Assembly (NCBI GenBank): GCA_964405655.1
Contig: CAYOOO010000005.1
Span: 6,335-70,334 of the forward strand
Direction of reading: 5' to 3'
DNA: 64,000 bases
Origin: an uncultured Gammaproteobacteria bacterium
GTDB lineage: Bacteria; Patescibacteriota; Microgenomatia; Daviesbacterales; UBA10151
The notes below the pieces were generated by a model. It did not search any database. It had not been told where the DNA came from and saw nothing but the letters and a program-made list of their open reading frames with translations. This document shows, one piece after another, positions 2,242 to 32,281 of this stretch (positions are counted from its first letter, which is position 1; every line of letters starts with the position of its first letter). The position numbers were made by a program, and so were the translations under genes.

Positions 2242-2790
2242 ATCGGAAAATATTATCGCTTAAACCAAAATATTCATAACCCAAGACTTTTGGTAATTGG
2301 TCCAGATGGCGAGAAGCTTGGAGAGCTAAGCAGAGAAGAGGCAATTGAAAAAGCTAGAGGTTTAGAATTAGATTTGGTTGAAATAGCTCCCAATACTAAA
2401 CCACCAGTAGCAAAAATTTTGGATTTCCAGAAATTCCGCTACGAGGAGAGTAAAAAGGAGCAGGCTGCCAGAAAACATGCTAAGGAGGTTGAGCAAAAAG
2501 AGATTTGGTTAACACCTAGGATTGCTGATCATGACTTAGGAGTCAGACTTAACAGGGTTGAACAGTTTTTAAGCGAAGGTGATAAAATTATGTTTCGGGT
2601 CAAGTTTAAAGGCAGGGAGATGGCCCATTTGGAGTTTGGGTTCCAGCTTTTAAATAAGATCTTTGCTATTTTAGGAGATAAAATAACAATCGAGCGAGAA
2701 CCCAAGGTAGAAGGCAGAAGTATTACAGCTATAATTGGTAAAAGCAGAGGCGGAGGTAAAAATGAAAAAGTTGAAAAAAATAAAACATAA
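2242..2790 (+). CDS. infC: Translation initiation factor IF-3, probably starting at a non-AUG codon (ATC at 2242). The longest ATG/TTG ORF starts at 2290.
   Basis: IF3 N- and C-domain motifs. The in-frame upstream residues YRLNQNIHNPRL align to the IF3 N-terminus. AGGAGG at 2227-2232 sits 9 nt before ATC 2242. Confidence 0.8.
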   Translation: MGKYYRLNQNIHNPRLLVIGPDGEKLGELSREEAIEKARGLELDLVEIAPNTKPPVAKILDFQKFRYEESKKEQAARKHAKEVEQKEIWLTPRIADHDLGVRLNRVEQFLSEGDKIMFRVKFKGREMAHLEFGFQLLNKIFAILGDKITIEREPKVEGRSITAIIGKSRGGGKNEKVEKNKT

Positions 2791-2974
2791 AACTAAAAAG
2801 GCTTTAATCAAGCGTATCAAGATTACTGGGACTGGTAAGATTATGCGCTCTCACCAACTGCGCTCAGGTCACTTGAGAAGAAATAAAAGCAAACGGACCC
2901 TAAGACGTCATGCTAAAGCTACACCTGTCTCTAAAACAGCCTTAAAATCTATTAAAAGAATGTTAGGAATATAA
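2762..2974 (+). CDS. rpmI: 50S ribosomal protein L35.
   Basis: Basic 70-aa protein MKKLKKIKHKTKKALIKRIKITGTGKIMR...; classic infC-rpmI-rplT order. Confidence 0.8.
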   Translation: MKKLKKIKHKTKKALIKRIKITGTGKIMRSHQLRSGHLRRNKSKRTLRRHAKATPVSKTALKSIKRMLGI

Positions 2975-2975
2975 T

Positions 2976-3323
2976 ATGGCCCGAATTAAAAGAGGAGTTA
3001 CCTCACATAGAAAACATAAAAAAGTACTTAGGCTAACCAAAGGTCATGTTGGTGGTCGAAGCAAGCTAATCAGAAGAGCAAAAGAGTCTCTTCTTCATGC
3101 TGGCCAATATGCTTTTGCCGGTAGAAAACTTAGAAAAAGAGATATGAGAAGACTTTGGATAGTTCAATTGGGCAATGCTGTCAGAGCAGAAGGATTAAGT
3201 TACTCAAGGTTTATCTCTCAACTACGAACTCATAACATTAAACTAGATCGTAAGATCTTGGCTGATCTAGCTATTAATCACCCTGAAGACCTCAAGCAAA
3301 TCATCTCCCAAGTCACCAAATAA
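2976..3323 (+). CDS. rplT: 50S ribosomal protein L20.
   Basis: MARIKRGVTSHRKHKKVLRLTKGHVGGRSKLIRRAKESLLHAGQYAF is a typical L20. Confidence 0.9.
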   Translation: MARIKRGVTSHRKHKKVLRLTKGHVGGRSKLIRRAKESLLHAGQYAFAGRKLRKRDMRRLWIVQLGNAVRAEGLSYSRFISQLRTHNIKLDRKILADLAINHPEDLKQIISQVTK

Positions 3324-3350
3324 TCAAGCTATAGTAGCTTGGATTCCTTT

Positions 3351-3359
3351 GTGCTAGAA
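3351..3359 (+). promoter_or_regulatory. Extended -10-like TGCTAGAAT upstream of pheS.
   Basis: Identical 9-mer to 2184-2192, 11 nt before the pheS ATG region. Confidence 0.3.
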
Positions 3360-3369
3360 TTTTATCCAA

Positions 3370-4407
3370 ATGCAAGAAAAGCTTGTTAGTATTAAACAAA
3401 AATACCTAGATCAAATTAACAAGGCTAAAGATCTGAAAGAGCTTGACCAAATTTTTTTGGCGCTTTTTGGGAAATCTGGCCAACTCACTTTGCTACCCAA
3501 GCAGTTTCCAAAAATCAGCCAAGAAGAACGCAAGAGGGTCGGACCTTTATTTAATTCTGTTAAACAGGAACTAGAAAATGCTATTACTCAAAAAAGAGCA
3601 GAAGTTAGAGAAAGAAATTATGCCAAGTTAGCATCTGAAAGTCCCGAATTAGTTAAAACTGAAATAAAAAAACGGGAGGGCAACCTCCATCCCATTACTG
3701 AATTTGAAAATAAAATTGCAGATTTGTTTAAAAAAATTGGCTTTCAACAGTTTGATGGCCCCCATATTGATACTGATGAATATAATTTTGGCTTGTTAAA
3801 CATTCCTCCAGAGCATCCGGCCAGAGATATGTGGGATACCTTATATATAAAAGGCCATAATGAGCAGGCAGAAGGAGAATTACTTCTTAGAACCCATACT
3901 TCTGATGCCCAGGCTCATATTATGAAGCAATATAAACCACCAATCAGAATGATGATTATTGGACGTTGTTTCAGATATGAGAACCTAGACCCGAGGCACG
4001 AACACACCTTTGATCAATTTGAAATTGTTTATATTGATAAAGGTTTAAGTTTGGCTAATTTACAGTATCTTTCCGAGTATTTATTCAGGGGTATGCTGGG
4101 TGAGAATACTAAAGTTAGACTGTCTCCGGGTTACTATCCCTTTACCGAGCCTAGTGCCCATATCTTTGGCTCCTGCATTTTTTGTAAAGGTAAGGGGTGT
4201 CAGGTTTGTGGAGCAACAGGGGAGTTAGAGCTGGCTGGAGCCGGGATGATCCATCCTAATGTACTTAGAAACTGTGGGATAGATCCAGAAGTTTATTCAG
4301 GAATTGCTTGGGGTGTTGGACCAGGTAGAATGGCTATGCTTAAATATGATGTTGCAGACTTGAGGCTTTTTAACAGTGGGGACTTAAAGTTTTTACAGAA
4401 GCTCTAG
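3370..4407 (+). CDS. pheS: Phenylalanyl-tRNA synthetase alpha subunit.
   Basis: Class II motifs (FRYENLDPRHEHTFDQFE; GYYPFTEPS; GAGMIHPNVLRN). Contains a CxxC-x4-CxxC knuckle. Confidence 0.9.
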   Translation: MQEKLVSIKQKYLDQINKAKDLKELDQIFLALFGKSGQLTLLPKQFPKISQEERKRVGPLFNSVKQELENAITQKRAEVRERNYAKLASESPELVKTEIKKREGNLHPITEFENKIADLFKKIGFQQFDGPHIDTDEYNFGLLNIPPEHPARDMWDTLYIKGHNEQAEGELLLRTHTSDAQAHIMKQYKPPIRMMIIGRCFRYENLDPRHEHTFDQFEIVYIDKGLSLANLQYLSEYLFRGMLGENTKVRLSPGYYPFTEPSAHIFGSCIFCKGKGCQVCGATGELELAGAGMIHPNVLRNCGIDPEVYSGIAWGVGPGRMAMLKYDVADLRLFNSGDLKFLQKL

Positions 4408-4456
4408 AGTTGGGACAATAAGTCGCTACCGCGATTGAATGTTCCAATTAAATATT

Positions 4457-6172
4457 ATGAAAGTATCAATTGATTGGTTAAAAGATCTAGTTAATTTAAA
4501 AGTTTCTTTAGATGAGCTCATCCGTCTGATTCCTCTTCGAACAATTGGCTTAAAAGAGGTTACCCCTGATTTTTTAGAACTTGACATGAAAGGTTATAAC
4601 CGGGCAGATCTTTTATCCTTAAGAGGAGTGGCTTATGAGGTTGCAGCAATTACTGACTCTCAAGTTAAGTTTGAGGAACTAGGTGAGGATAAACTCCTTT
4701 GGATAGAACAAACTTTTCCATCCCTCAATGTCAAAGTTGAGGATGGGAAACTGGCTCCGGTTTATTGTTTGGTTAAAATATCCGGCTTAAAAGTTGCCCC
4801 TTCAGAAGATACTTGGGTTAAGAAACTGGCTGACTCAGGGATCAGATCCGTTAATAACTTAGCTGATATTACAAATTTAGTAATGATTGAGTATGGCCAA
4901 CCTCTTCATGCCTTTGATGCCAAAGCAGTCAAAGATGAAACCATTGTTGTCAGAACTGCCAAAAAAGGAGAGAGGCTTACCACATTGGATGGAAAAACCA
5001 GAGACTTAACAGAAGAGGATTTGTTAATTACTGATCCACAAAATGCTTTAGGAATAGCTGGAGTGATGGGAGGTAAAGATTCTGAAGTCTCAGAAACTAC
5101 AACCACAATTTTACTGGAGGCTGCAATTTTTAATCCTACAAGTATCAGAAGAACTGCTACCAGGCAAAAGCTGATCTCTGAGGCAAGTAAAAGATTTTAT
5201 CATGGGTTAACCCAAAAGAGATTGTTTCAAGCGCTAGATGCTGCCATTAAGATGTATCAAGATCTGGGTGGAAAGCTAGAAGGGTTAACAATTATTGGAG
5301 ATACCCAAGATCAAGTTAAAACAATTAAATTAACTCAGGAAAAGATTAACTCCCTTATTGGCGTAGATATCCCACCAGTGCAAGTGGAATCATTTTTGAA
5401 AAAATTAGGTTTCCACCTCGAAGGTGTAGGCTCAAACTCATGGCAAATCACTCTACCTTACTTTAGGCCAGATATTAACATTGAGGAGGATTTGATTGAG
5501 GAAGTTGCCAGGATGTATGGTTATGAGAAAATCCCATCAAAAGAGCTTAGGGGAAAGCTACCTAAAAAGATTGACCAGTCTCTTTTTGATTTAATTTATG
5601 ATCTTAAAAAAGCTTTAGTAGATATTGGTTTAACAGAAGTTCAAACTTACTCTTTTTACTCAACCCAGGTATTAAGCACATTAGGCTGGAATGAAGAAGA
5701 TAGAAAAAAACATCTGGTTAGAATTGCTAATCCCATTTCTTCTGAAACAGAGTTTATGCGTCAAAATATCTGGCCTAATTTAATTGAGGTGGTTGCTAAA
5801 AATTTAAAACAAGGTTTTGATGATATCGCTATATTTGAGCTTGGAAAAATGTATTGCTTAAATGAAAAGAATCACCCTGAAGAGGGGTATAGTTTGGCTA
5901 TAGCTTTAATGAACAATTCAGACTCGCCTGTTCTTGAACTGAATCAAATGCTCAAGAGCCTGAATGAGCAAATCAAGCTAAAATTGACTGTCGATAAAGA
6001 CACATCACCTCAAGTTTCATCCCATCTATTTCACCCAACCAGGTTTTACTCTCTAAAATTAGGGGAAAAAAGAGTTGGAGGCATGGCTGAAGTTCATCCT
6101 AAAGTGCTTTTTAACTTTGGGATAGATAAGCGAGTAGCTATACTCCAGCTTGATTTAAAGGAGCTAATATGA
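4457..6172 (+). CDS. pheT: Phenylalanyl-tRNA synthetase beta subunit, a short form (~570 aa).
   Basis: N-terminus MKVSIDWLKDLVNL, B3/B4 and B5 regions, C-terminal anticodon-binding-like domain. It immediately follows pheS. Confidence 0.85.
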   Translation: MKVSIDWLKDLVNLKVSLDELIRLIPLRTIGLKEVTPDFLELDMKGYNRADLLSLRGVAYEVAAITDSQVKFEELGEDKLLWIEQTFPSLNVKVEDGKLAPVYCLVKISGLKVAPSEDTWVKKLADSGIRSVNNLADITNLVMIEYGQPLHAFDAKAVKDETIVVRTAKKGERLTTLDGKTRDLTEEDLLITDPQNALGIAGVMGGKDSEVSETTTTILLEAAIFNPTSIRRTATRQKLISEASKRFYHGLTQKRLFQALDAAIKMYQDLGGKLEGLTIIGDTQDQVKTIKLTQEKINSLIGVDIPPVQVESFLKKLGFHLEGVGSNSWQITLPYFRPDINIEEDLIEEVARMYGYEKIPSKELRGKLPKKIDQSLFDLIYDLKKALVDIGLTEVQTYSFYSTQVLSTLGWNEEDRKKHLVRIANPISSETEFMRQNIWPNLIEVVAKNLKQGFDDIAIFELGKMYCLNEKNHPEEGYSLAIALMNNSDSPVLELNQMLKSLNEQIKLKLTVDKDTSPQVSSHLFHPTRFYSLKLGEKRVGGMAEVHPKVLFNFGIDKRVAILQLDLKELI

Positions 6173-9953: not shown

Positions 9954-10045
9954 AAGTAGAAAAGAAGTGTCTGGTTAAAATACCAGTCTTAGACTAACTT
10001 TGTCAATTCACAAGATATTGGGGGGTAGACAGACCAGAACTCATG

Positions 10046-10118
10046 TCCAAGGCCCTGGAGTCGAACCAGGCTAAACAGGTTTTACAGACCTGCGCATCAA
10101 CCGCTCTGCCAGCCTTGG
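10046..10118 (-). tRNA. tRNA-Tyr (anticodon GUA). It is type I (short 5-nt variable loop) with a C1:G72 acceptor pair and A73; no encoded CCA.
   Basis: Reverse complement: CCAAGGC-TG-GCAGAGCGGTTGATGC-G-CAGGT-CTGTAAA-ACCTG-TTTAG-CCTGG-TTCGACT-CCAGG-GCCTTGG-A. This folds as a cloverleaf with GTA at positions 34-36. Confidence 0.8.
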
Positions 10119-10196: not shown

Positions 10197-12458
10197 TTAC
10201 TTATTAAATCCACCAACGAAGAAGTCCCAGATCATCTGAAGAAGACCTCTGCTTGTTTTAGCTCCTTGAACAGATGGAGCGGGCTGAGGTGCAGTCGTAC
10301 TCTCGGGTTGGGGCGCAGGAGCACTTGTTTGTGCAGGCTGAGGAGTGGACTGAGTACTAGTTGTAGTGGTTGATGAACCTCCACACTGACAGGAGCAGAA
10401 ATCACCATTCCAGTTACAAGTTCCTCCACAAGATCTGCATCCTGATTCCTGTGATTCTCTATTCATACCTGAAGGAGCTGTAGTTTGAGTGGTGGTAGTA
10501 CCTGTAGTGGTTGTTCCTGAAGTAGGTGAATTATAACCTCGGCAGTAACAGCTTCCACTACTCCAGTCACAAGTCCCACCACCAGATCTACAAGTAGCTT
10601 CTTGAGAGTCTCTAGTCATGGTGTTACCTGAGTAACTACCACTGCCACTATAAGAACTCGTTGTTCCGGAAGTAGATCCATAATTTGCATACTGACAATA
10701 TGATCCATTCCAAGTCCCACCACTATTCCTACATGCTTGTGCTGGATCATAATAGTTATTGGTGGTAGTAGCTGGTGCGCTGTAACCTTTACAATAACAG
10801 GAACCATTACTCCAATCGCAAGTTCCTCCACCCGCCTTGCAACCAGCCTCTTGTTGGTCCCTACTACTCATACCAGCATTATTGTTTCCTGAAATACCTT
10901 TCATACAATTACAGGTAGTGCCGTTGTTATCCCAACTACAATAACCACCTGATTGATTACAGGCTCTATTTTGATCTGCTGCAGGCGCATTGGTCTTAAC
11001 TTCTATCTGTGTGTAGTTGGGATTTCGATAATTTTGGCAACTACAAATTCCGCTGCTCCAATCGCAAGTACCACCGCCTGATTTACAGGTAGCCTCCTGG
11101 GAGTCTCTACTCATGGTACTACCACCATAGTAAACACCAGCACTGGTACACTGACAGGAGTTATTAGCCCAACTACAACCTGATTGGCTACACATCTTTG
11201 CAGGATCATAGTTATATGAAGCACATAGACAGCCGCCCCCAGCACCGCCAACCCAGGCACAACCTCCTCTGGCACAGGCAGCTGCAGGATCTGAGTAGTA
11301 TTTATCTGCCTGGTAATCTTTACAGGACGAACCATCCCAGTATTTACTGGCTTGTGTCGTACACTGATAAGCATCAGCGCTCTTATTTAAGGGTGTACAG
11401 ACTCCTCCCGGACCGATGTAGTAATCAGCTGGACAACGGACATAATAGTTGTAACTCTCAGTTTTTGGCCGGCATTGCTCAGGGTTGTCCCGACAGAACT
11501 CCATGTATTTTTGCTCAGCAGAACCTTTTTGGGGACTCATACATTTATCAGCGTTCTCTCGGCAGTGTCTGGCAAACTCTTCAGGGCTGGTGTAGTCACC
11601 AATTGGTCGAAAGTCTACTGCTCCACCAACAATACTTCTACAAGATTGGGGATTATTTTTACAATAATTTAAACAGCTCTCAGGTGAGTTACAACCTCCG
11701 GGTCCTCTAAATTCTCCAGGGCCACCACCAAAGTTTGAGCATTCCTGATAATTTTTGGGGTCCAGACAAAAAGTTTTACAGGTAGTTTCTGACGTGCAGC
11801 CTCCTGGGCCAACTCTCATCTCACCACCCCTTAACCCAACCTTTTGGGCAACTTCTGAACACTTTTGGCGATTCTCTTCTTTGTCGCAAAGACTCTTACA
11901 GGAGGTCGCATCATTGCAACCTAAAACCGCTTTTACCTTGTCTAAAACCCTCTCTGGTTCCTCAACATACCCGCCTGGTACTCCGATTTCTTTTGCCAGC
12001 TGATTACATTTATCATAGTTTTCCTCCTTATCACAAACATTTGCACAAGATTGAGGTGTGTTACACCCAAGAATCCTCTTGGCCGCAATTAAGAATTTCT
12101 GTTCAACTTCTGCTTTTAGACCTTCCCCCTGATAAAAACCTTTGGTCTTAGCATAGGCCACACAAGCATTTTCATTAACTGGATCTTCGCAAAAAGTTCT
12201 ACAGGATGAATAATTTGCACAATTACCCAGCTCGGCAATAGGAAAAACAATCCCGTATTTGCTGGTCTTTTTTACAACCTCTTCCTCAAGATCATCAACT
12301 CCATCATTATTTTCATCTAATACTGGATGCGAAGGGGAAATAAGAATTGGTACTTTATCAACTGTAACTAATATAAAAACAAAAACTACTAAAGGAAGAA
12401 GTAGCGATCTTAGTAATCTGCTTTTTAAAATGCTCAAAATTGAATTATTAAAAGTCAT
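10197..12458 (-). CDS. Giant secreted Cys-rich repeat protein (753 aa), copy 1 of a paralogous pair. It has a signal anchor, ~5 four-Cys repeats (LGCxxxxSCxxxCDxxxNxxKCxxxAK), four ~50-aa SRDSQEATC-SGGGTCDWSSGSC-C-GY repeats, a Thr/Ser/Pro/Gln-rich tail and a conserved hydrophobic C-terminus.
   Basis: Read from the translation. Strong collinearity with ORF 15445..17766 over the N-terminal 350 aa. Confidence 0.6.
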   Translation of the reverse strand: MTFNNSILSILKSRLLRSLLLPLVVFVFILVTVDKVPILISPSHPVLDENNDGVDDLEEEVVKKTSKYGIVFPIAELGNCANYSSCRTFCEDPVNENACVAYAKTKGFYQGEGLKAEVEQKFLIAAKRILGCNTPQSCANVCDKEENYDKCNQLAKEIGVPGGYVEEPERVLDKVKAVLGCNDATSCKSLCDKEENRQKCSEVAQKVGLRGGEMRVGPGGCTSETTCKTFCLDPKNYQECSNFGGGPGEFRGPGGCNSPESCLNYCKNNPQSCRSIVGGAVDFRPIGDYTSPEEFARHCRENADKCMSPQKGSAEQKYMEFCRDNPEQCRPKTESYNYYVRCPADYYIGPGGVCTPLNKSADAYQCTTQASKYWDGSSCKDYQADKYYSDPAAACARGGCAWVGGAGGGCLCASYNYDPAKMCSQSGCSWANNSCQCTSAGVYYGGSTMSRDSQEATCKSGGGTCDWSSGICSCQNYRNPNYTQIEVKTNAPAADQNRACNQSGGYCSWDNNGTTCNCMKGISGNNNAGMSSRDQQEAGCKAGGGTCDWSNGSCYCKGYSAPATTTNNYYDPAQACRNSGGTWNGSYCQYANYGSTSGTTSSYSGSGSYSGNTMTRDSQEATCRSGGGTCDWSSGSCYCRGYNSPTSGTTTTGTTTTQTTAPSGMNRESQESGCRSCGGTCNWNGDFCSCQCGGSSTTTTSTQSTPQPAQTSAPAPQPESTTAPQPAPSVQGAKTSRGLLQMIWDFFVGGFNK

Positions 12459-15444: not shown

Positions 15445-17766
15445 CTAATTTTTTCCTAGCAAGAAGTTAATCACTCTCTGAAGCCAGCTGACTTGAGTGC
15501 TTGCTCCTGCTACACCGCCAGCGTCACTGCTAGGAGGTGGGGGCGGAGGGGGCTCTGGTGGAGGCGGGGGAGGGGTTTCATAGCTTGGAGTTCCATAAGA
15601 AGGGGTAGCATAACTCGGTGTACCGTAACTTGGGGTAGCATAACTTGGACTCGGATAAGAATAAGATGGTGATGGGTATGAGTAAGATCCAGGGGTGGGA
15701 TAACTATAGGTACCTGAGGGAGTGTAATAGCTAGGTGAAGGATAAGAATAGCTACCAGAAGGTGTTGGATAAGAATAACCAGGTGTTGGGTAGGAGTAGC
15801 CTGATGAAGGAGTTAAGTAGCTTTCTGGTGTGTAGTAAGTTGGGGTGGTATAACTACTACCTGGTGGAGGAGTGTAGTAGGATGGTGTTACATAATTTCC
15901 TCCAGAAGGAGTGTAGTAGGTCGGGGAGGTGTAGGTACTGCCAGGAGGAGGAGTGTAATAGCTAGGTGTATTATAAACCGCTGGTGTATAGTAGCTTGGG
16001 GTGGTGTAATTTGAACCAGGAGGTGGGGTATAGTAGGTCGGTGTGGTATATGAACCTGTTACATTGATTGGAGTATAGTAGGTTGGTGTGGTATAAGGCG
16101 GTGGCGTGGTGTAATTAGGTGTGGTATAACTCGATCCCGGAGGTGGAGTATAGTAATAGGGTGTAGTGTACCTTGGTGGGGTGTAGTAAGTCGGGGTGGT
16201 GTAATTTGAGCCAAGAGGAGGGGTATAGTAGGAAGGCGTGTTATATGAAGGTGTTGGGTAATTTCCTTGCGGAGTTGGATAGTAGGTTCCTGGTGTATAG
16301 TAAGTTGGGGTGGTATAACTACTACCTGGTGGAGGAGTGTAATAAGAAGGAGTCAAGTAGATACCTGGCGTATAGTAGCTTGGGGTGGTGTAATTTGATC
16401 CCGGAGGTGGAGTGTAGTAGACAGGCGTGACATAAAAACTTGTTGCGGGCGGGGTATAGTAAACAGAATCTTTAGGCGGAGTATAGTAAGTACCTGGGAC
16501 AAAATTATCTAGGGGTCTTGGAGATTTAGCATCAAATCCCTGACATTTGCCTGGATTGTCCTTACAAAAGTCATAACAAGCGCCTGGTGAGTCACAATTC
16601 CCCATCTCTTTAACTGGCTCCATTTTGACAGGAGTCCCGGGTGTGTAATATATAGAGGGTAAATATTTATCTGTTGGTCTCGGGCCACTTCCATCAAAGC
16701 CTCCACATTTACCTGGGTTTTCTTTACAATAGTCATAACAGGCTCCAGGGGTCTTACAATTTCCCATATCAGGTCTAGGTTGAAAGTATGCACCACCTGC
16801 TGTTGGGTTAATCCCTGGTGGCGGGCTGTCTTGACAGCTTGATCCACTCCAATATTTACCTCCTTGGGCACAGGATTGAGCTACTTGTGTCTTATCATTC
16901 GGTGTGCAAGCACCTCCAGGTCCAAAATTCTGTCCAGCCGGGCAAGCTACCGGAACATAGGCTCCATTGGAACCTGGTGCATAGCTCCTACAATCAGCTG
17001 GGTTTTGTTCACAATGCGATCGGCAGGATTCAGGGTTATTACATCCTCCTGGGCCTTGGAATTGTTGGCCTGGTGGAGCAAAAGCCTGACATTTACTAAA
17101 GTTATTTGGATCAGCGCAGAAGTTTTTACAAGTAGCATCTGAATTACATCCTCCTGGGCCCTCTTTAACCTCTCCCCCTAAAAGCCCAACTGACTTAGCA
17201 AACTGGTCACATTTTGCAGCATTGGCCTGGTTATCACAAAAGCTGCTACAGCTGGCAGCTGAATCACAACCTAAGATTTTCTTGGCTTGATCTAAAAACT
17301 GTGGTTTATCTGGTTCTTGGACATAACCTCCAATAATCTCTTCTTCTTTAGCAAAACCATCACATTTATCTTTATTTTCAGCTTTTGAGCAGAAGTCTAA
17401 ACACTCTTCCTTATCTTTACAACCTAAACCATCTTGAGTTTTCTTCCAAAATTCATCATCAGCAGCTAAAACTTTATCCTGTTTATAAAAACCCTTTTTC
17501 TTGGCATAGTCTGCACAGGAGGAAAAGTTGACTGGATCATCGCAATAAGCTAAACATTCTCCTTTGTTCTCGCAGTTGCCCAAATCTTTGATGGGAAAGA
17601 CTACAGCGTTATCTTGTCCACCTGGCGCAGGTGAGGCAGTTGGGCTTGGGGCAGGAGAAGGGGATGTTGTTTGAGCTTTTGCTTGAGTACTAAAAAAGAA
17701 GACTAGAATTGAAGCTGCCAGTAGTATTGCTAACTTATTTAGATTTCCTCTAATTAAATTGATCAT
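15445..17766 (-). CDS. Giant secreted Cys-rich repeat protein (773 aa), copy 2. Its N-terminal 4-Cys repeats are homologous to copy 1. The C-terminal ~300 aa are tandem Tyr/Thr/Pro-rich repeats (TPSYYTPPPGSNYTTPTYYTP), then poly-Pro and a conserved hydrophobic C-terminus.
   Basis: Signal peptide; PIKDLGNCENKGECLAYCDDPVNFSSCADYAKKKGFY aligns with the copy-1 PIAELGNC... block. The start overlaps the small gene stop (ATGA). Confidence 0.6.
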   Translation of the reverse strand: MINLIRGNLNKLAILLAASILVFFFSTQAKAQTTSPSPAPSPTASPAPGGQDNAVVFPIKDLGNCENKGECLAYCDDPVNFSSCADYAKKKGFYKQDKVLAADDEFWKKTQDGLGCKDKEECLDFCSKAENKDKCDGFAKEEEIIGGYVQEPDKPQFLDQAKKILGCDSAASCSSFCDNQANAAKCDQFAKSVGLLGGEVKEGPGGCNSDATCKNFCADPNNFSKCQAFAPPGQQFQGPGGCNNPESCRSHCEQNPADCRSYAPGSNGAYVPVACPAGQNFGPGGACTPNDKTQVAQSCAQGGKYWSGSSCQDSPPPGINPTAGGAYFQPRPDMGNCKTPGACYDYCKENPGKCGGFDGSGPRPTDKYLPSIYYTPGTPVKMEPVKEMGNCDSPGACYDFCKDNPGKCQGFDAKSPRPLDNFVPGTYYTPPKDSVYYTPPATSFYVTPVYYTPPPGSNYTTPSYYTPGIYLTPSYYTPPPGSSYTTPTYYTPGTYYPTPQGNYPTPSYNTPSYYTPPLGSNYTTPTYYTPPRYTTPYYYTPPPGSSYTTPNYTTPPPYTTPTYYTPINVTGSYTTPTYYTPPPGSNYTTPSYYTPAVYNTPSYYTPPPGSTYTSPTYYTPSGGNYVTPSYYTPPPGSSYTTPTYYTPESYLTPSSGYSYPTPGYSYPTPSGSYSYPSPSYYTPSGTYSYPTPGSYSYPSPSYSYPSPSYATPSYGTPSYATPSYGTPSYETPPPPPPEPPPPPPPSSDAGGVAGASTQVSWLQRVINFLLGKN
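15546..16500 (-). repeat. In-frame tandem DNA repeats of ~30-60 bp encoding the YYTPPPGS(N/S)YTTP(S/T)YYTP units inside the 773-aa gene.
   Basis: Visible periodicity of ggtggagg/agtgtagtag/ccaggtgg units on the + strand. Confidence 0.6.
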
Positions 17767-31063: not shown

Positions 31064-31174
31064 CGAGATAAAGCTGACTTGACAACTATAGGATAGTATT
31101 ATACTTTAGACAACAGAAATATTCAAATTCTCAAGCTTTAAAAAAAAATAAGCTTTGAATATAATGATCCTACT

Positions 31175-32281
31175 ATGACAACTGAAGAAAAAATTAAATT
31201 AATTACCAGAAATTTAGAAGAGACTTTAACTGAGGAGGAGCTTAAGACTCTAATAGAGTCTGGTAAACCACTTATCCACTATATTGGTTATGAAGTTTCA
31301 GGAAAACTCCATATTGGCCAAGGTTTATATATCATGCTTAAGATTAAAGACCTCCAAGAAGCTGGAGTGAAAACCAAAATTTTAATTGCTGACTGGCATA
31401 CATGGCTTAATAAAAAGCTTGATGGAAAATTAGAAACTGCTAAAAAACTTGGCAAAGACTACCTAGAAGAAGTTTTAAGAGCGAGCGCAGTTTGTGTGGG
31501 AGCAGATCCAGACAAGATCGAATTTGTCTTGGGAAGTGAGCATTATCAGAAATTAGGCCTAGATTATTGGGCAACAGTCATAAGAGTAGCCAAGGCCACA
31601 ACTTTATCCCGAATGATCCGTTCTACTACTATTATGGGGCGTAAGGAATCTGAAGTGACTGATTCTGCTATGCTGATTTACCCTGCTATGCAATCAGCAG
31701 ATATCTTTATGCTAGGTGTTAATATCGCTCAAGCTGGCACAGATCAAAGAAATGTCCACATTGTAGCAAGAGACGCTGCAGAGGAACTTGGTTTTGAAAA
31801 ACCAATAACCATTCATGGTCACCTTTTACAAGGACTACTTCCTCCAATTTTGGTTGAAAATCCCAAGAGTGGCAAAAAAGAGATGGATATGGAGGCAGCT
31901 AAGATGAGTAAATCAAAACCTGATAGTGGGGTTTATATGACTGATACTCCTGAGGAGATTAAAAGAAAGATTATGGGAGCCTATGCACCAGAAGGGGTGG
32001 TAGAGTATAACCCTGTTTTAGACTGGACAAAGCATCTGATCTTTTACGAGGAAGGTTCAACTTTAACTATTAAAAGAGACCCAAGATGGGGAGGGGATCT
32101 AAGTTACAACTCTTATCAAGATTTAGAAAAAGACTATGAGCAAAAAAAACTTCACCCTCAGGACTTAAAGGTAGCTGTAGTAGAGTGGTTGATTCAAAAA
32201 CTCGAGCCTGCCAGAAAGCACTTTGAAGAGCCCAAAAGAAAAGCTGCGCTAGAAGAGATTGAGAAATTAACCCAGCGATAA
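31175..32281 (+). CDS. tyrS: Archaeal/eukaryal-type tyrosyl-tRNA synthetase.
   Basis: HIGQ and KMSKS motifs. It aligns along its length with archaeal TyrRS (YIGYEVSGKLHIGQ; YPAMQSADI; LTIKRDPRWGGDLSYNSYQDLEKDYEQKKLHPQDLK). Confidence 0.85.
   Translation: MTTEEKIKLITRNLEETLTEEELKTLIESGKPLIHYIGYEVSGKLHIGQGLYIMLKIKDLQEAGVKTKILIADWHTWLNKKLDGKLETAKKLGKDYLEEVLRASAVCVGADPDKIEFVLGSEHYQKLGLDYWATVIRVAKATTLSRMIRSTTIMGRKESEVTDSAMLIYPAMQSADIFMLGVNIAQAGTDQRNVHIVARDAAEELGFEKPITIHGHLLQGLLPPILVENPKSGKKEMDMEAAKMSKSKPDSGVYMTDTPEEIKRKIMGAYAPEGVVEYNPVLDWTKHLIFYEEGSTLTIKRDPRWGGDLSYNSYQDLEKDYEQKKLHPQDLKVAVVEWLIQKLEPARKHFEEPKRKAALEEIEKLTQR

Follow-up and report, generated by a model that had tools for sequence, protein, structure and literature searches.

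The identity of tRNA-Tyr is among the clearest divides between Archaea/Eukarya and Bacteria: a C1:G72 acceptor pair and no long variable arm on one side, a G1:C72 pair and a long variable arm read by an S4 domain on the other. The orthogonal M. jannaschii pair with which the genetic code is expanded in E. coli is built on this divide. The 64-kb stretch of DNA analysed here, hereafter the window, carries a tyrosyl-tRNA synthetase (TyrRS) gene of archaeal appearance together with a tRNA-Tyr gene. The question raised by this locus is whether a bacterium charges tRNA-Tyr by the archaeal rule and, if so, how the enzyme and the tRNA were brought together. The features on which the analysis turns are as follows.

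10046..10118, minus strand: tRNA-Tyr(GUA), 73 nt (ARAGORN; Rfam RF00005, 52.1 bits)
31137..31165, plus strand: promoter-like consensus match (TTTAAA, 17 nt, TATAAT) with 9 nt between its end and the tyrS ATG
31175..32281, plus strand: tyrS, archaeal/eukaryal-type tyrosyl-tRNA synthetase, 368 aa, ATG start (ORF plus profile and structure matches)

The window encodes an archaeal/eukaryal-type TyrRS

The product of the ORF at 31175..32281 is a class I synthetase with HIGQ at residues 46-49 (H46-I-G-Q49) and KMSKS at residues 243-247 (K243-M-S-K-S247). The C-terminal motif that had also been picked out by a sequence-only reading of this DNA, LTIKRDPRWGGDLSYNSYQDLE, is present at residues 297-318, in the C-terminal part of the protein. 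The fourth HIGH position is variable in the Daviesbacteria clade, where it is occupied by Q, W or T. The NCBIfam model of archaeal-type TyrRS (NF006330, PRK08560) scored 403.7 bits against a cutoff of 220, and the best solved structure was that of Pyrococcus horikoshii TyrRS (2cyc, 1.6e-100), in which residues 2-359 of the query aligned with residues 2-367 of a 375-residue chain. The end-to-end alignment with archaeal TyrRS proposed by that reading is thus confirmed. Identity to the P. horikoshii enzyme, a long form, is about 50%, with the same layout, the same insertion before KMSKS and no S4 domain in either protein; the window enzyme differs in its bacterial host, in the fourth HIGH residue (Q rather than the T of Pyrococcus) and in having DQRN in place of DQRK.

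PF00579 was the sole Pfam match (residues 30-341). The S4 and SYY_C-terminal domains were absent from the window TyrRS in this search, whereas the same tool identified both in the positive control, a bacterial-type TyrRS on locus L067. A Rossmann catalytic domain is followed in the protein by an anticodon-binding domain of archaeal type at the C terminus, and the lack of a bacterial S4-like C-terminal domain, also claimed from the sequence, was borne out.

Two other identities were rejected. The bacterial tyrS model TIGR00234 reached 107.4 bits, below its cutoff of 113.8, and bacterial TyrRS 1h3e matched at 3e-12 over the N-terminal 217 residues only. Together with the missing S4 domain and an identity of 22% to bacterial-type TyrRS (E. 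coli), compared with about 50% to the DPANN, Asgard and Thermococci enzymes, these results argue against a bacterial-type TyrRS. The best TrpRS model, TIGR00233 (trpS), gave 98.4 bits against a cutoff of 176.75, all TrpRS models fell far under their cutoffs, and TrpRS structures matched at 1e-10 or weaker compared with 1e-100 for TyrRS. A database protein, MBI2021708.1 ‘tyrosine--tRNA ligase [Candidatus Daviesbacteria bacterium]’, is 100% identical to the window TyrRS. From these data we conclude that the window enzyme is an archaeal/eukaryal-type TyrRS.

Predicted tyrosine- and tRNA-contacting residues

Roles for the residues that contact tyrosine, C1, G72 and G34 were taken from M. jannaschii TyrRS, in which K175 is the G72 contact (PMC1934993). 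Residues are numbered below as M. jannaschii TyrRS/window TyrRS; the M. jannaschii reference was 100% identical to 1j1u. This enzyme is a 306-aa short form that is about 45% identical to the window protein, and the two have the same tyrosine pocket. The tyrosine-binding residues Y32/Y36, Y151/Y169, Q155/Q173, D158/D176 and Q173/Q191 are all kept, and their window equivalents are invariant in 120/120 Daviesbacteria-clade homologues. The C1 readers R132/R149 and R174/R192 and the G34 readers H283/H327 and D286/D330 are likewise retained and conserved throughout the same 120 proteins.

The exception is K175, the equivalent of which is N193. This position is Asn in all 120 Daviesbacteria-clade proteins, whereas Lys is found in 30/30 sequences from other bacteria and in 43/44 from archaea. 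With the G72-contacting Lys replaced by Asn clade-wide, the details of how the acceptor end is recognised may be different. Yeast TyrRS uses the equivalent of R132 to read G72, and recognition of C1:G72 may therefore still be intact despite N193.

Genomic context and host

The contig that carries tyrS also encodes PBP1, F-type ATP synthase, RecG, RNase III, type IV pilus proteins, GyrB, Mur ligases and a bacterial PheRS (alpha and beta). The host is a CPR bacterium, Candidatus Daviesbacteria (Microgenomates), and not an archaeal contaminant. Nine independent Daviesbacteria assemblies share the gene order atp operon, tyrS, recG, orf122, rnc, and the GC content, GC3 and codon usage of tyrS lie at most 0.3 sd from those of the other window genes. 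With its synteny conserved and its composition ordinary, we consider tyrS a stable resident of Daviesbacteria.

Scanning around tyrS for promoters and terminators yielded consensus matches only. The promoter-like match at 31137..31165 is not evidence of function, because the region holds 10 such sites compared with 5.8 ± 1.9 in shuffled sequences, and no obvious Shine-Dalgarno sequence was seen between this match and the tyrS ATG. No T-box or other RNA was found near tyrS in an Rfam search, in which the tRNA was the only match.

The tRNA-Tyr combines archaeal identity elements with a bacterial D-arm

The tRNA-Tyr is the sole tRNA in the window. ARAGORN reported its span as 10045..10118, which includes one base beyond A73. 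The acceptor end has C1:G72, in agreement with what had been read from the sequence, and A73, and CCA is not encoded. The variable loop is 4-5 nt and there is no long variable arm. M. jannaschii tRNA-Tyr shares C1:G72, A73 and the short variable loop. The D-arm of the window tRNA comprises U8 and G9, a 3-bp stem, G13.A22 and a GAGCGG loop, whereas M. jannaschii tRNA-Tyr has the 4-bp D-stem of archaea.

The tRNA bears every archaeal identity feature, as would be expected if the TyrRS and tRNA-Tyr genes had both come from an archaeon and the tRNA were archaeal by descent. Cassette-like arrangements of a C1:G72 tRNA-Tyr and TyrRS elsewhere, with an archaeal-looking D-arm in a group labelled Chloroflexota/Dormibacterota, favour the same reading. 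However, 21 kb separates the two window genes, which are on opposite strands, and none of the nine Daviesbacteria loci has a tRNA within 10 kb of tyrS. Moreover, the D-arm is canonically bacterial. When metagenome loci were selected by the D-arm motif TGGCAGAGYGG..TGC, 114 of the 121 tRNA-Tyr genes that ARAGORN identified among the matches listed had G1:C72 and a long arm. Some tRNA-Tyr genes have C1:G72 and still carry the long arm (L089, L132, L137 and L076), and these intermediates join the two states. Joint import of the enzyme and its tRNA is thus an unlikely origin for the window pair.

Pairwise identity over the whole tRNA was 0.65-0.78 throughout (0.71 to M. jannaschii tRNA-Tyr and 0.75 to the Chloroflexota type), a range that does not separate bacterial from archaeal ancestry and leaves the D-arm signature as the one informative feature. 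Because whole-tRNA identity does not discriminate, the argument for bacterial descent is drawn from the D-arm only. On that signature, the window tRNA-Tyr is probably a remodelled resident bacterial tRNA and not an import.

Phylogeny and distribution of archaeal-type TyrRS in bacteria

Neighbour-joining (NJ) trees were constructed with 300 bootstraps and a bacterial-type TyrRS outgroup (E. coli and the L067 ORF). The locus scan used a 9-sequence alignment, the 30-sequence alignment being too diverse for this purpose. In 300/300 bootstraps the archaeal/eukaryal-type clade was split from the bacterial-type outgroup; with TrpRS excluded by the profile and structure scores above, the phylogenetic placement agrees with the assignment of the enzyme. 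Bacterial carriers were not monophyletic in any of the 300 bootstraps, but formed at least six separate groups interleaved with archaeal sequences. As these carriers are scattered and never monophyletic, lateral transfer is favoured. Support for deep nodes was below 35% in the NJ trees and below 10% when they were rooted by bacterial-type TyrRS, which gave the root no supported position, and for this reason we name the donor no further than a ‘long-form archaeal group’.

One could argue instead that archaeal-type TyrRS and C1:G72 were ancestral, inherited from LUCA or from the last common ancestor of Bacteria, and were kept by vertical descent in some CPR lineages and replaced elsewhere in Bacteria. 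The gene is old in Daviesbacteria, as judged from its ordinary composition and conserved synteny, and with such low support at the deep nodes a basal position is compatible with the trees. Nevertheless, the interleaving of the bacterial carriers with archaea speaks against common retention, as does the fact that the Daviesbacteria TyrRS shares 48% identity with the enzymes of other CPR carriers, no more than the 50% it shares with those of archaea. The genomic position of archaeal-type tyrS also differs among CPR lineages, and the window tRNA-Tyr resembles the derived bacterial class II tRNA-Tyr. Taken together, these results make ancient retention very improbable. The two origins offered in the sequence-only reading, retention or acquisition of an entire pair, thus fared unequally: the first is disfavoured, and of the second the lateral origin of the enzyme is probable, whereas the tRNA is more likely a remodelled resident. 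That reading had also called for a survey of CPR lineages. Within CPR, carriers were found beyond Daviesbacteria.

MAGs with labels such as Chloroflexota and Dormibacterota also encode related enzymes. The archaeal-type TyrRS genes at many other bacterial loci have a C1:G72 tRNA-Tyr immediately upstream, in a cassette-like arrangement. Such tRNA-Tyr/TyrRS cassettes were seen in genomes labelled Chloroflexota and Dormibacterota, and in this group the cassette tRNA-Tyr has an archaeal-looking D-arm (TAGCCAAGCTGGTCAAGGC). On L067, one short contig, a bacterial-type and an archaeal-type TyrRS are adjacent. We found no account of archaeal-type TyrRS in non-CPR bacteria in the literature searched.

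Has the bacterial enzyme been replaced?

The claim that the archaeal-type TyrRS replaces the bacterial enzyme was examined within the 64-kb window. Neither a bacterial-type tyrS (tblastn) nor a G1:C72 tRNA-Tyr (ARAGORN) was found there, which is compatible with the claim. As the window is only 64 kb of the genome, the archaeal-type genes might constitute a second, orthogonal tyrosine pair beside a canonical bacterial TyrRS and tRNA-Tyr encoded elsewhere. There are parallels for such an arrangement, in that L067 has both types of TyrRS side by side and coexistence has been described for the TrpRS-A of Beckwithbacteria (PMC5370408). An auxiliary role is nonetheless hard to reconcile with the conserved housekeeping neighbourhood of tyrS and with catalytic residues that show no variation among 120/120 homologues. 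The genomes of CPR bacteria, at about 1 Mb, generally have single aaRS copies, which also counts against a second pair. Mukai et al. describe such bacteria as having archaeal Tyr identity (PMC5370408). Overall, we regard an auxiliary copy as highly improbable.

The notion that tyrS is an archaeal fragment placed in a bacterial contig by faulty assembly or binning is effectively refuted: although cross-contamination of CPR and DPANN bins is known (PMC5370408) and some MAG labels in our collection are clearly unreliable, the bacterial atp operon and recG flank tyrS on the same contig, the arrangement recurs in nine independent assemblies, and the composition of the gene is like that of its neighbours.

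Discussion

The most likely explanation for these results, in which we have considerable confidence, is that the archaeal-type enzyme is the working TyrRS of Daviesbacteria, that it was laterally acquired, and that the resident tRNA-Tyr was remodelled to suit it, leaving the bacterial TyrRS dispensable. With a D-arm that is bacterial and with long-arm C1:G72 forms in existence, lateral acquisition of the enzyme and remodelling of the tRNA are the probable combination. A Daviesbacteria ancestor would have gained tyrS from an archaeon with a ‘long-form’ TyrRS of about 375 aa, of a DPANN/Asgard/Thermococci-like group. The gene would then have become established between the atp operon and recG, and its inheritance from that point on would have been vertical. 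Archaeal identity would have come to the host's own bacterial tRNA-Tyr as G1:C72 was flipped to C1:G72 and the long arm was lost, after which the bacterial TyrRS could have been dispensed with.

As predicted from its residues, the enzyme would activate tyrosine with ATP in the Rossmann-fold site by means of HIGQ and KMSKS, with Tyr36 and Asp176 on the phenol OH, and would then move it onto the tRNA-Tyr(GUA) encoded 21 kb away. The tRNA would be read via C1:G72 (Arg192 and Arg149), A73 and G34 (Asp330 and His327), a mode of recognition that would operate without an S4 domain and would not require a long variable arm. The bacterial-type TyrRSs (E. coli 6HB5, T. thermophilus 1H3E), which are about 22% identical to the window enzyme, have the same class Ic Rossmann fold, catalyse the same reaction and share A73 and G34 as identity elements. 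They differ in reading G1:C72 and in binding the long variable arm through an S4-like domain, whereas the window pair has neither the domain nor the arm.

The phenomenon itself is not new. Archaea/eukarya-type TyrRS together with C1-G72 tRNA-Tyr was published for CPR by Mukai, Reynolds, Crnkovic and Soll in 2017 (Life 7:8; PMC5370408), with Daviesbacteria as one major bacterial group of their TyrRS tree. These authors report that the C1-G72 tRNA-Tyr occurs both with the long variable arm and without it; they infer that many of these tRNAs originated in bacteria and that DPANN archaea took part in several lateral transfers. Phenomenon and lineage are the same here, without essential difference, and the window adds one more well-preserved case rather than a discovery. 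What goes beyond that study is a Daviesbacteria tRNA-Tyr that lacks the long arm but has a bacterial D-arm, the synteny across Daviesbacteria, the clade-fixed Lys-to-Asn change at the G72-contacting position, and the related enzymes in MAGs labelled Chloroflexota, Dormibacterota and other phyla. Possibly useful for further work are the apparent series of canonical tRNA-Tyr, C1:G72 forms with a long arm and C1:G72 forms lacking one, together with the fixed Lys-to-Asn change and the similar cassettes in MAGs labelled as non-CPR phyla.

As a more speculative reading, the Daviesbacteria system may be a hybrid that recognises its tRNA in a distinct way, the archaeal enzyme having the clade-fixed Lys-to-Asn change at its G72 contact and the tRNA-Tyr being a bacterial one without the long arm. 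Bacteria that use the archaeal rule show, as was pointed out for CPR including Daviesbacteria in 2017, that tRNA identity is not tied to one domain of life, and that one domain can take over an aaRS from another provided that the tRNA co-adapts.

Enzyme identity

31175-32281, + strand: tyrS, an ATG-initiated ORF encoding a 368-aa TyrRS
10046-10118, - strand: tRNA-Tyr(GTA), the only tRNA gene in the window (Rfam tRNA, 52.1 bits)

The sequence-only reading had placed tyrS at the same coordinates and described its product as aligning end to end with archaeal TyrRS, lacking the bacterial S4-like C-terminal domain, and accompanied by a C1:G72 tRNA-Tyr. The expected motifs were present as H46-I-G-Q49, K243-M-S-K-S247 and, at residues 297-318, LTIKRDPRWGGDLSYNSYQDLE. 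A Pfam search of the whole protein yielded PF00579 (class I W/Y synthetase; residues 30-341) as the sole match, with no S4 or SYY_C-terminal domain; in the same kind of search, the bacterial-type TyrRS of L067, a contig labelled Woesearchaeota, served as positive control and matched S4 and SYY_C-terminal as well as PF00579. The protein scored 403.7 bits against NF006330 (PRK08560, archaeal-type TyrRS; cutoff 220), and Pyrococcus horikoshii TyrRS (2cyc) matched at 1.6e-100, residues 2-359 aligning with 2-367 of 375. Bacterial-type TyrRS identity was ruled out by a TIGR00234 (bacterial tyrS) score of 107.4 bits, below the cutoff of 113.8, by the lack of S4, and by a Thermus thermophilus TyrRS (1h3e) match of only 3e-12 over the first ~217 residues. 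TrpRS identity was likewise ruled out, as all TrpRS models fell far under cutoff and TrpRS structures matched at 1e-10 or weaker. The C1:G72 tRNA-Tyr was present at 10046-10118, and the observation was thus confirmed in every detail.

Genomic context

The window protein matches MBI2021708.1 (Candidatus Daviesbacteria bacterium, 'tyrosine--tRNA ligase') at 100% identity, and its best 120 database matches are 68-80% identical and, where named, are named as Daviesbacteria only. An F-type ATP synthase operon lies directly upstream of tyrS and recG directly downstream. The window also encodes bifunctional PBP1, RNase III, a type IV pilus cluster, GyrB, Mur ligases, ThrRS and bacterial PheRS alpha/beta, and is unmistakably bacterial DNA. 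The GC content (0.389), GC3 (0.317) and codon usage of tyrS deviate by at most 0.3 sd from 26 other window genes. As the order atp operon, tyrS, recG, orf122, rnc is the same across nine independent assemblies of Daviesbacteria (L001-L008 and L031), contamination or chimerism is excluded. We conclude that tyrS is a long-standing, vertically inherited resident of the Daviesbacteria lineage. A tblastn search with Escherichia coli TyrRS (checked against PDB 6hb5) found no bacterial-type tyrS within the 64-kb window, whose single tRNA-Tyr has C1:G72; judged on these 64 kb, the archaeal-type TyrRS may well replace the bacterial enzyme.

Several MAGs from binchicken/SRP co-assemblies (L001, L003, L006, L007, L045 and L059) bear the title 'uncultured Gammaproteobacteria bacterium' and carry a Daviesbacteria-like or CPR-like TyrRS and Daviesbacteria synteny; their record names are unreliable for taxonomy. 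Three further features of the window were recorded.

4439-6172, + strand: PheRS beta, 577 aa, first Pfam domain B3_4 from residue 106
10197-12458, - strand: ORF of 753 aa, directly upstream of the tRNA-Tyr gene
15445-17766, - strand: large ORF of 773 aa

In PheRS beta, the N-terminal B1/B2 (OB-fold) region found in typical bacterial forms appears to be absent; Mukai, Reynolds, Crnkovic and Soll (Life 2017, 7:8; PMC5370408) note the same for many CPR bacteria. The 753- and 773-aa ORFs gave no match in a Pfam search; their GC content is 0.44-0.45 versus ~0.39 in neighbours, and no other window genes deviate as far in codon usage (distances 0.24 and 0.34 versus a mean of 0.19).

Phylogeny and distribution

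One genome per GTDB species was scanned for archaeal-type TyrRS, yielding 80 loci. Neighbour-joining trees (Kimura distances, 300 bootstraps) were built from 371 and 369 trimmed columns, one tree without and one with a bacterial-type outgroup. The window protein fell inside a Daviesbacteria core clade (99%; 297/300), to which a second Daviesbacteria cluster was sister with weak support (61% and 44%). Both clusters lay within archaeal/eukaryal-type TyrRS, which every replicate (300/300) kept apart from the bacterial-type outgroup. The window TyrRS clearly belongs neither to TrpRS nor to a bacterial-type clade, the placements that would have spoken against the sequence-only reading. In the tree without outgroup, Daviesbacteria joined the long-form enzymes (~375 aa) of DPANN, Asgard and Thermococci (65-88%), with Saccharolobus, short-form and plant/algal sequences outside; once the outgroup was added, only 73/300 replicates retained this split. 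Mean identity to the window protein was 0.50 for each of Thermococci, DPANN archaea and Asgard archaea, 0.48 for other CPR bacteria and for a Chloroflexota/Dormibacterota-type group, 0.37 for eukaryotes (plant/alga) and 0.22 for bacterial-type TyrRS. Ranked by bit score, the second of the 50%-cluster representatives is P0121 (Brassica napus XP_013677029.1, 753 aa; identity ~37%), a plant cytoplasmic 'tyrosine--tRNA ligase 2' of double length that aligned in two stretches; its high score reflects duplication, not nearer kinship.

Bacterial carriers are interleaved with archaeal sequences and split into at least six separate groups, found among Daviesbacteria; Shapirobacteria and relatives; Parcubacteria; WWE3; Dojkabacteria; Peribacteria with Saccharibacteria-labelled MAGs; a Patescibacteria trio; and the large Chloroflexota/Dormibacterota-type group. 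Monophyly of the carriers was recovered in 0/300 replicates. Because the carriers are scattered and interleaved, lateral transfer of the enzyme is favoured, with deep nodes of these trees at <35% support and no supported root from the bacterial-type outgroup.

Origin of the tRNA

The sequence-only reading had proposed either ancient retention or lateral acquisition of an entire synthetase-tRNA pair. The window tRNA-Tyr has C1:G72, A73, a variable loop of 4-5 nt and no encoded CCA, and its D-arm contains U8-G9, a 3-bp D-stem with G13.A22 and a GAGCGG D-loop (TGGCAGAGCGGTTGATGC). C1:G72 and A73 were found in 23/23 tRNA-Tyr genes near archaeal-type TyrRS at the genome-scan loci (22 bacterial-labelled, plus that of L078, labelled 'Methanoperedens'); seven of the 23 genes have a 13-15 nt long arm and the rest a variable region of 4-5 nt.

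We scanned metagenome contigs for the window D-arm inside a tRNA-Tyr frame whose variable region could be short or long. On the loci listed, ARAGORN called 121 tRNA-Tyr genes, a few of them second copies without the motif. Canonical bacterial G1:C72, A73 and a long arm characterized 114 of the 121; three had C1:G72 with a long arm, three were odd calls with a first pair of T:A or T:C, and one, in L166, had C1:G72 with a short loop and lay 9 nt upstream of an archaeal-type TyrRS. As 114 of these 121 genes on the listed loci were canonical bacterial, the window D-arm is a bacterial tRNA-Tyr D-arm. The bacterial D-arm and long arm were combined with the flipped C1:G72 pair in L089, L132 and L137 (metagenome) and in L076, L077, L051, L028, L045 and L066; such tRNAs look like intermediates between the canonical bacterial and the armless window form. 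Because whole-tRNA identity did not discriminate bacterial from archaeal ancestry, one structural signature, the D-arm, carries the conclusion of bacterial descent. This agrees with Mukai et al. (PMC5370408), who derive many CPR C1-G72 tRNA-Tyr from bacterial tRNA-Tyr.

The bacterial D-arm argues against import of the entire pair. The best reading for the Daviesbacteria lineage appears to be that an archaeal-type TyrRS was imported laterally and that the resident bacterial tRNA-Tyr was converted in place to C1:G72. The earlier interpretation is thus partly supported.

Predicted tRNA recognition

Residue roles from the Methanocaldococcus jannaschii and yeast TyrRS-tRNA complexes (PMC1934993) were mapped onto the window protein, using an M. 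jannaschii reference identical to PDB 1j1u (306/306).

Mapped residues (M. jannaschii to window)
Tyrosine pocket: Y32 to Y36; Y151 to Y169; Q155 to Q173; D158 to D176; Q173 to Q191
C1 reader: R174 to R192; via water, R132 to R149
G34 reader: D286 to D330; H283 to H327
G72 contact: K175 to N193 (replaced)

The tyrosine-pocket, C1- and G34-reading residues are kept and are invariant in 120/120 clade homologues. Asn occupies the Lys175 position throughout the Daviesbacteria clade (120/120 proteins); Lys is found there in the other bacterial carriers (30/30), in archaeal sequences (43/44) and in the divergent second cluster of Daviesbacteria. In this alignment-based mapping, Lys175-to-Asn is the single clade-specific departure. 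As the Arg132 equivalent reads G72 in yeast TyrRS (PMC1934993), C1:G72 recognition is probably retained, although its detail may differ. The window tRNA-Tyr carries every archaeal/eukaryal identity element (C1:G72, A73, G34-U35-A36). The window enzyme would accordingly be predicted to tyrosylate tRNA as a standard archaeal-type TyrRS partnered with a converted bacterial tRNA-Tyr.

Arrangements at other loci

A C1:G72/A73 tRNA-Tyr(GTA) lies directly upstream of archaeal-type TyrRS on the same strand in 18/41 bacterial-labelled loci (L024, L028, L030, L034, L038, L039, L040, L044, L045, L047, L049, L057, L059, L061, L066, L069, L070 and L076), the tRNA ending 10-260 nt before the TyrRS match, and also in metagenome L166:662-1799. 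Among the genome-scan loci, this cassette-like arrangement was in none of the Daviesbacteria loci and in no archaeal-labelled one. The accessible text of Mukai et al. (PMC5370408) describes a TrpRS-A and tRNA operon and contains none of this kind for TyrRS. At CPR loci L028:5512-7191, L051:9276-11690, L059:65-2089 and L066:9900-12574, TyrRS lies inside a tRNA cluster (tRNA-Tyr, TyrRS, tRNA-Thr or tRNA-Ala, tRNA-Trp), as if inserted beside the resident tRNA-Tyr. The Daviesbacteria site, between atp and recG, differs, consistent with independent insertions.

Archaeal-type TyrRS was also found in MAGs whose labels, partly unreliable, name taxa outside CPR: Chloroflexota, Dormibacterota, Binatia, Actinomycetes and Omnitrophota (L024, L029, L030, L034, L037, L038, L039, L040, L044, L054, L061, L062, L065, L069, L075 and L079); no report of this was found in the literature searched. 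A well-supported Chloroflexia/Dormibacterota/Binatia/Actinomycetes-labelled subgroup has enzymes 71-96% identical; its tRNA-Tyr (CCCAGGGTAGCCAAGCTGGTCAAGGCAACGGTCTGTAAAACCGTGTATCGCTGGTTCGAGTCCAGCCCCTGGGA) hardly varies and has a D-arm that resembles archaeal rather than bacterial ones. More distant members are found on a 4.2-Mb chromosome labelled Chloroflexota (L037, OZ243944.1).

The 5.3-kb contig L067 carries, at 2259-5233, a same-strand tandem of three class Ic synthetase genes, and may represent a genome with both Tyr systems side by side.

2259-3449: bacterial-type TyrRS with S4 domain
3482-4612: archaeal-type TyrRS
4862-5233: third PF00579 fragment, cut by the contig end

At L078:1537-5066, labelled Candidatus Methanoperedens, TyrRS and the Shapirobacteria enzyme are sisters (100% bootstrap), and a C1:G72 tRNA-Tyr lies 2.3 kb upstream; either the contig belongs to CPR and was mis-binned, or a transfer took place recently.

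Relation to previous work

Mukai et al. (PMC5370408) report archaea/eukarya-type TyrRS and C1-G72 tRNA-Tyr, both with and without a long arm, in Parcubacteria, Microgenomates, Dojkabacteria and Katanobacteria, and propose several lateral transfers involving DPANN archaea. As Daviesbacteria are among the major bacterial groups in their TyrRS tree, the archaeal-type TyrRS of Daviesbacteria is already known and was correctly rediscovered here. Our additions are the conserved atp/tyrS/recG synteny, the ordinary gene composition, the clade-fixed K-to-N substitution and the D-arm test. Minor as a discovery, the biology of an archaeal-type TyrRS in a bacterium is remarkable in itself.
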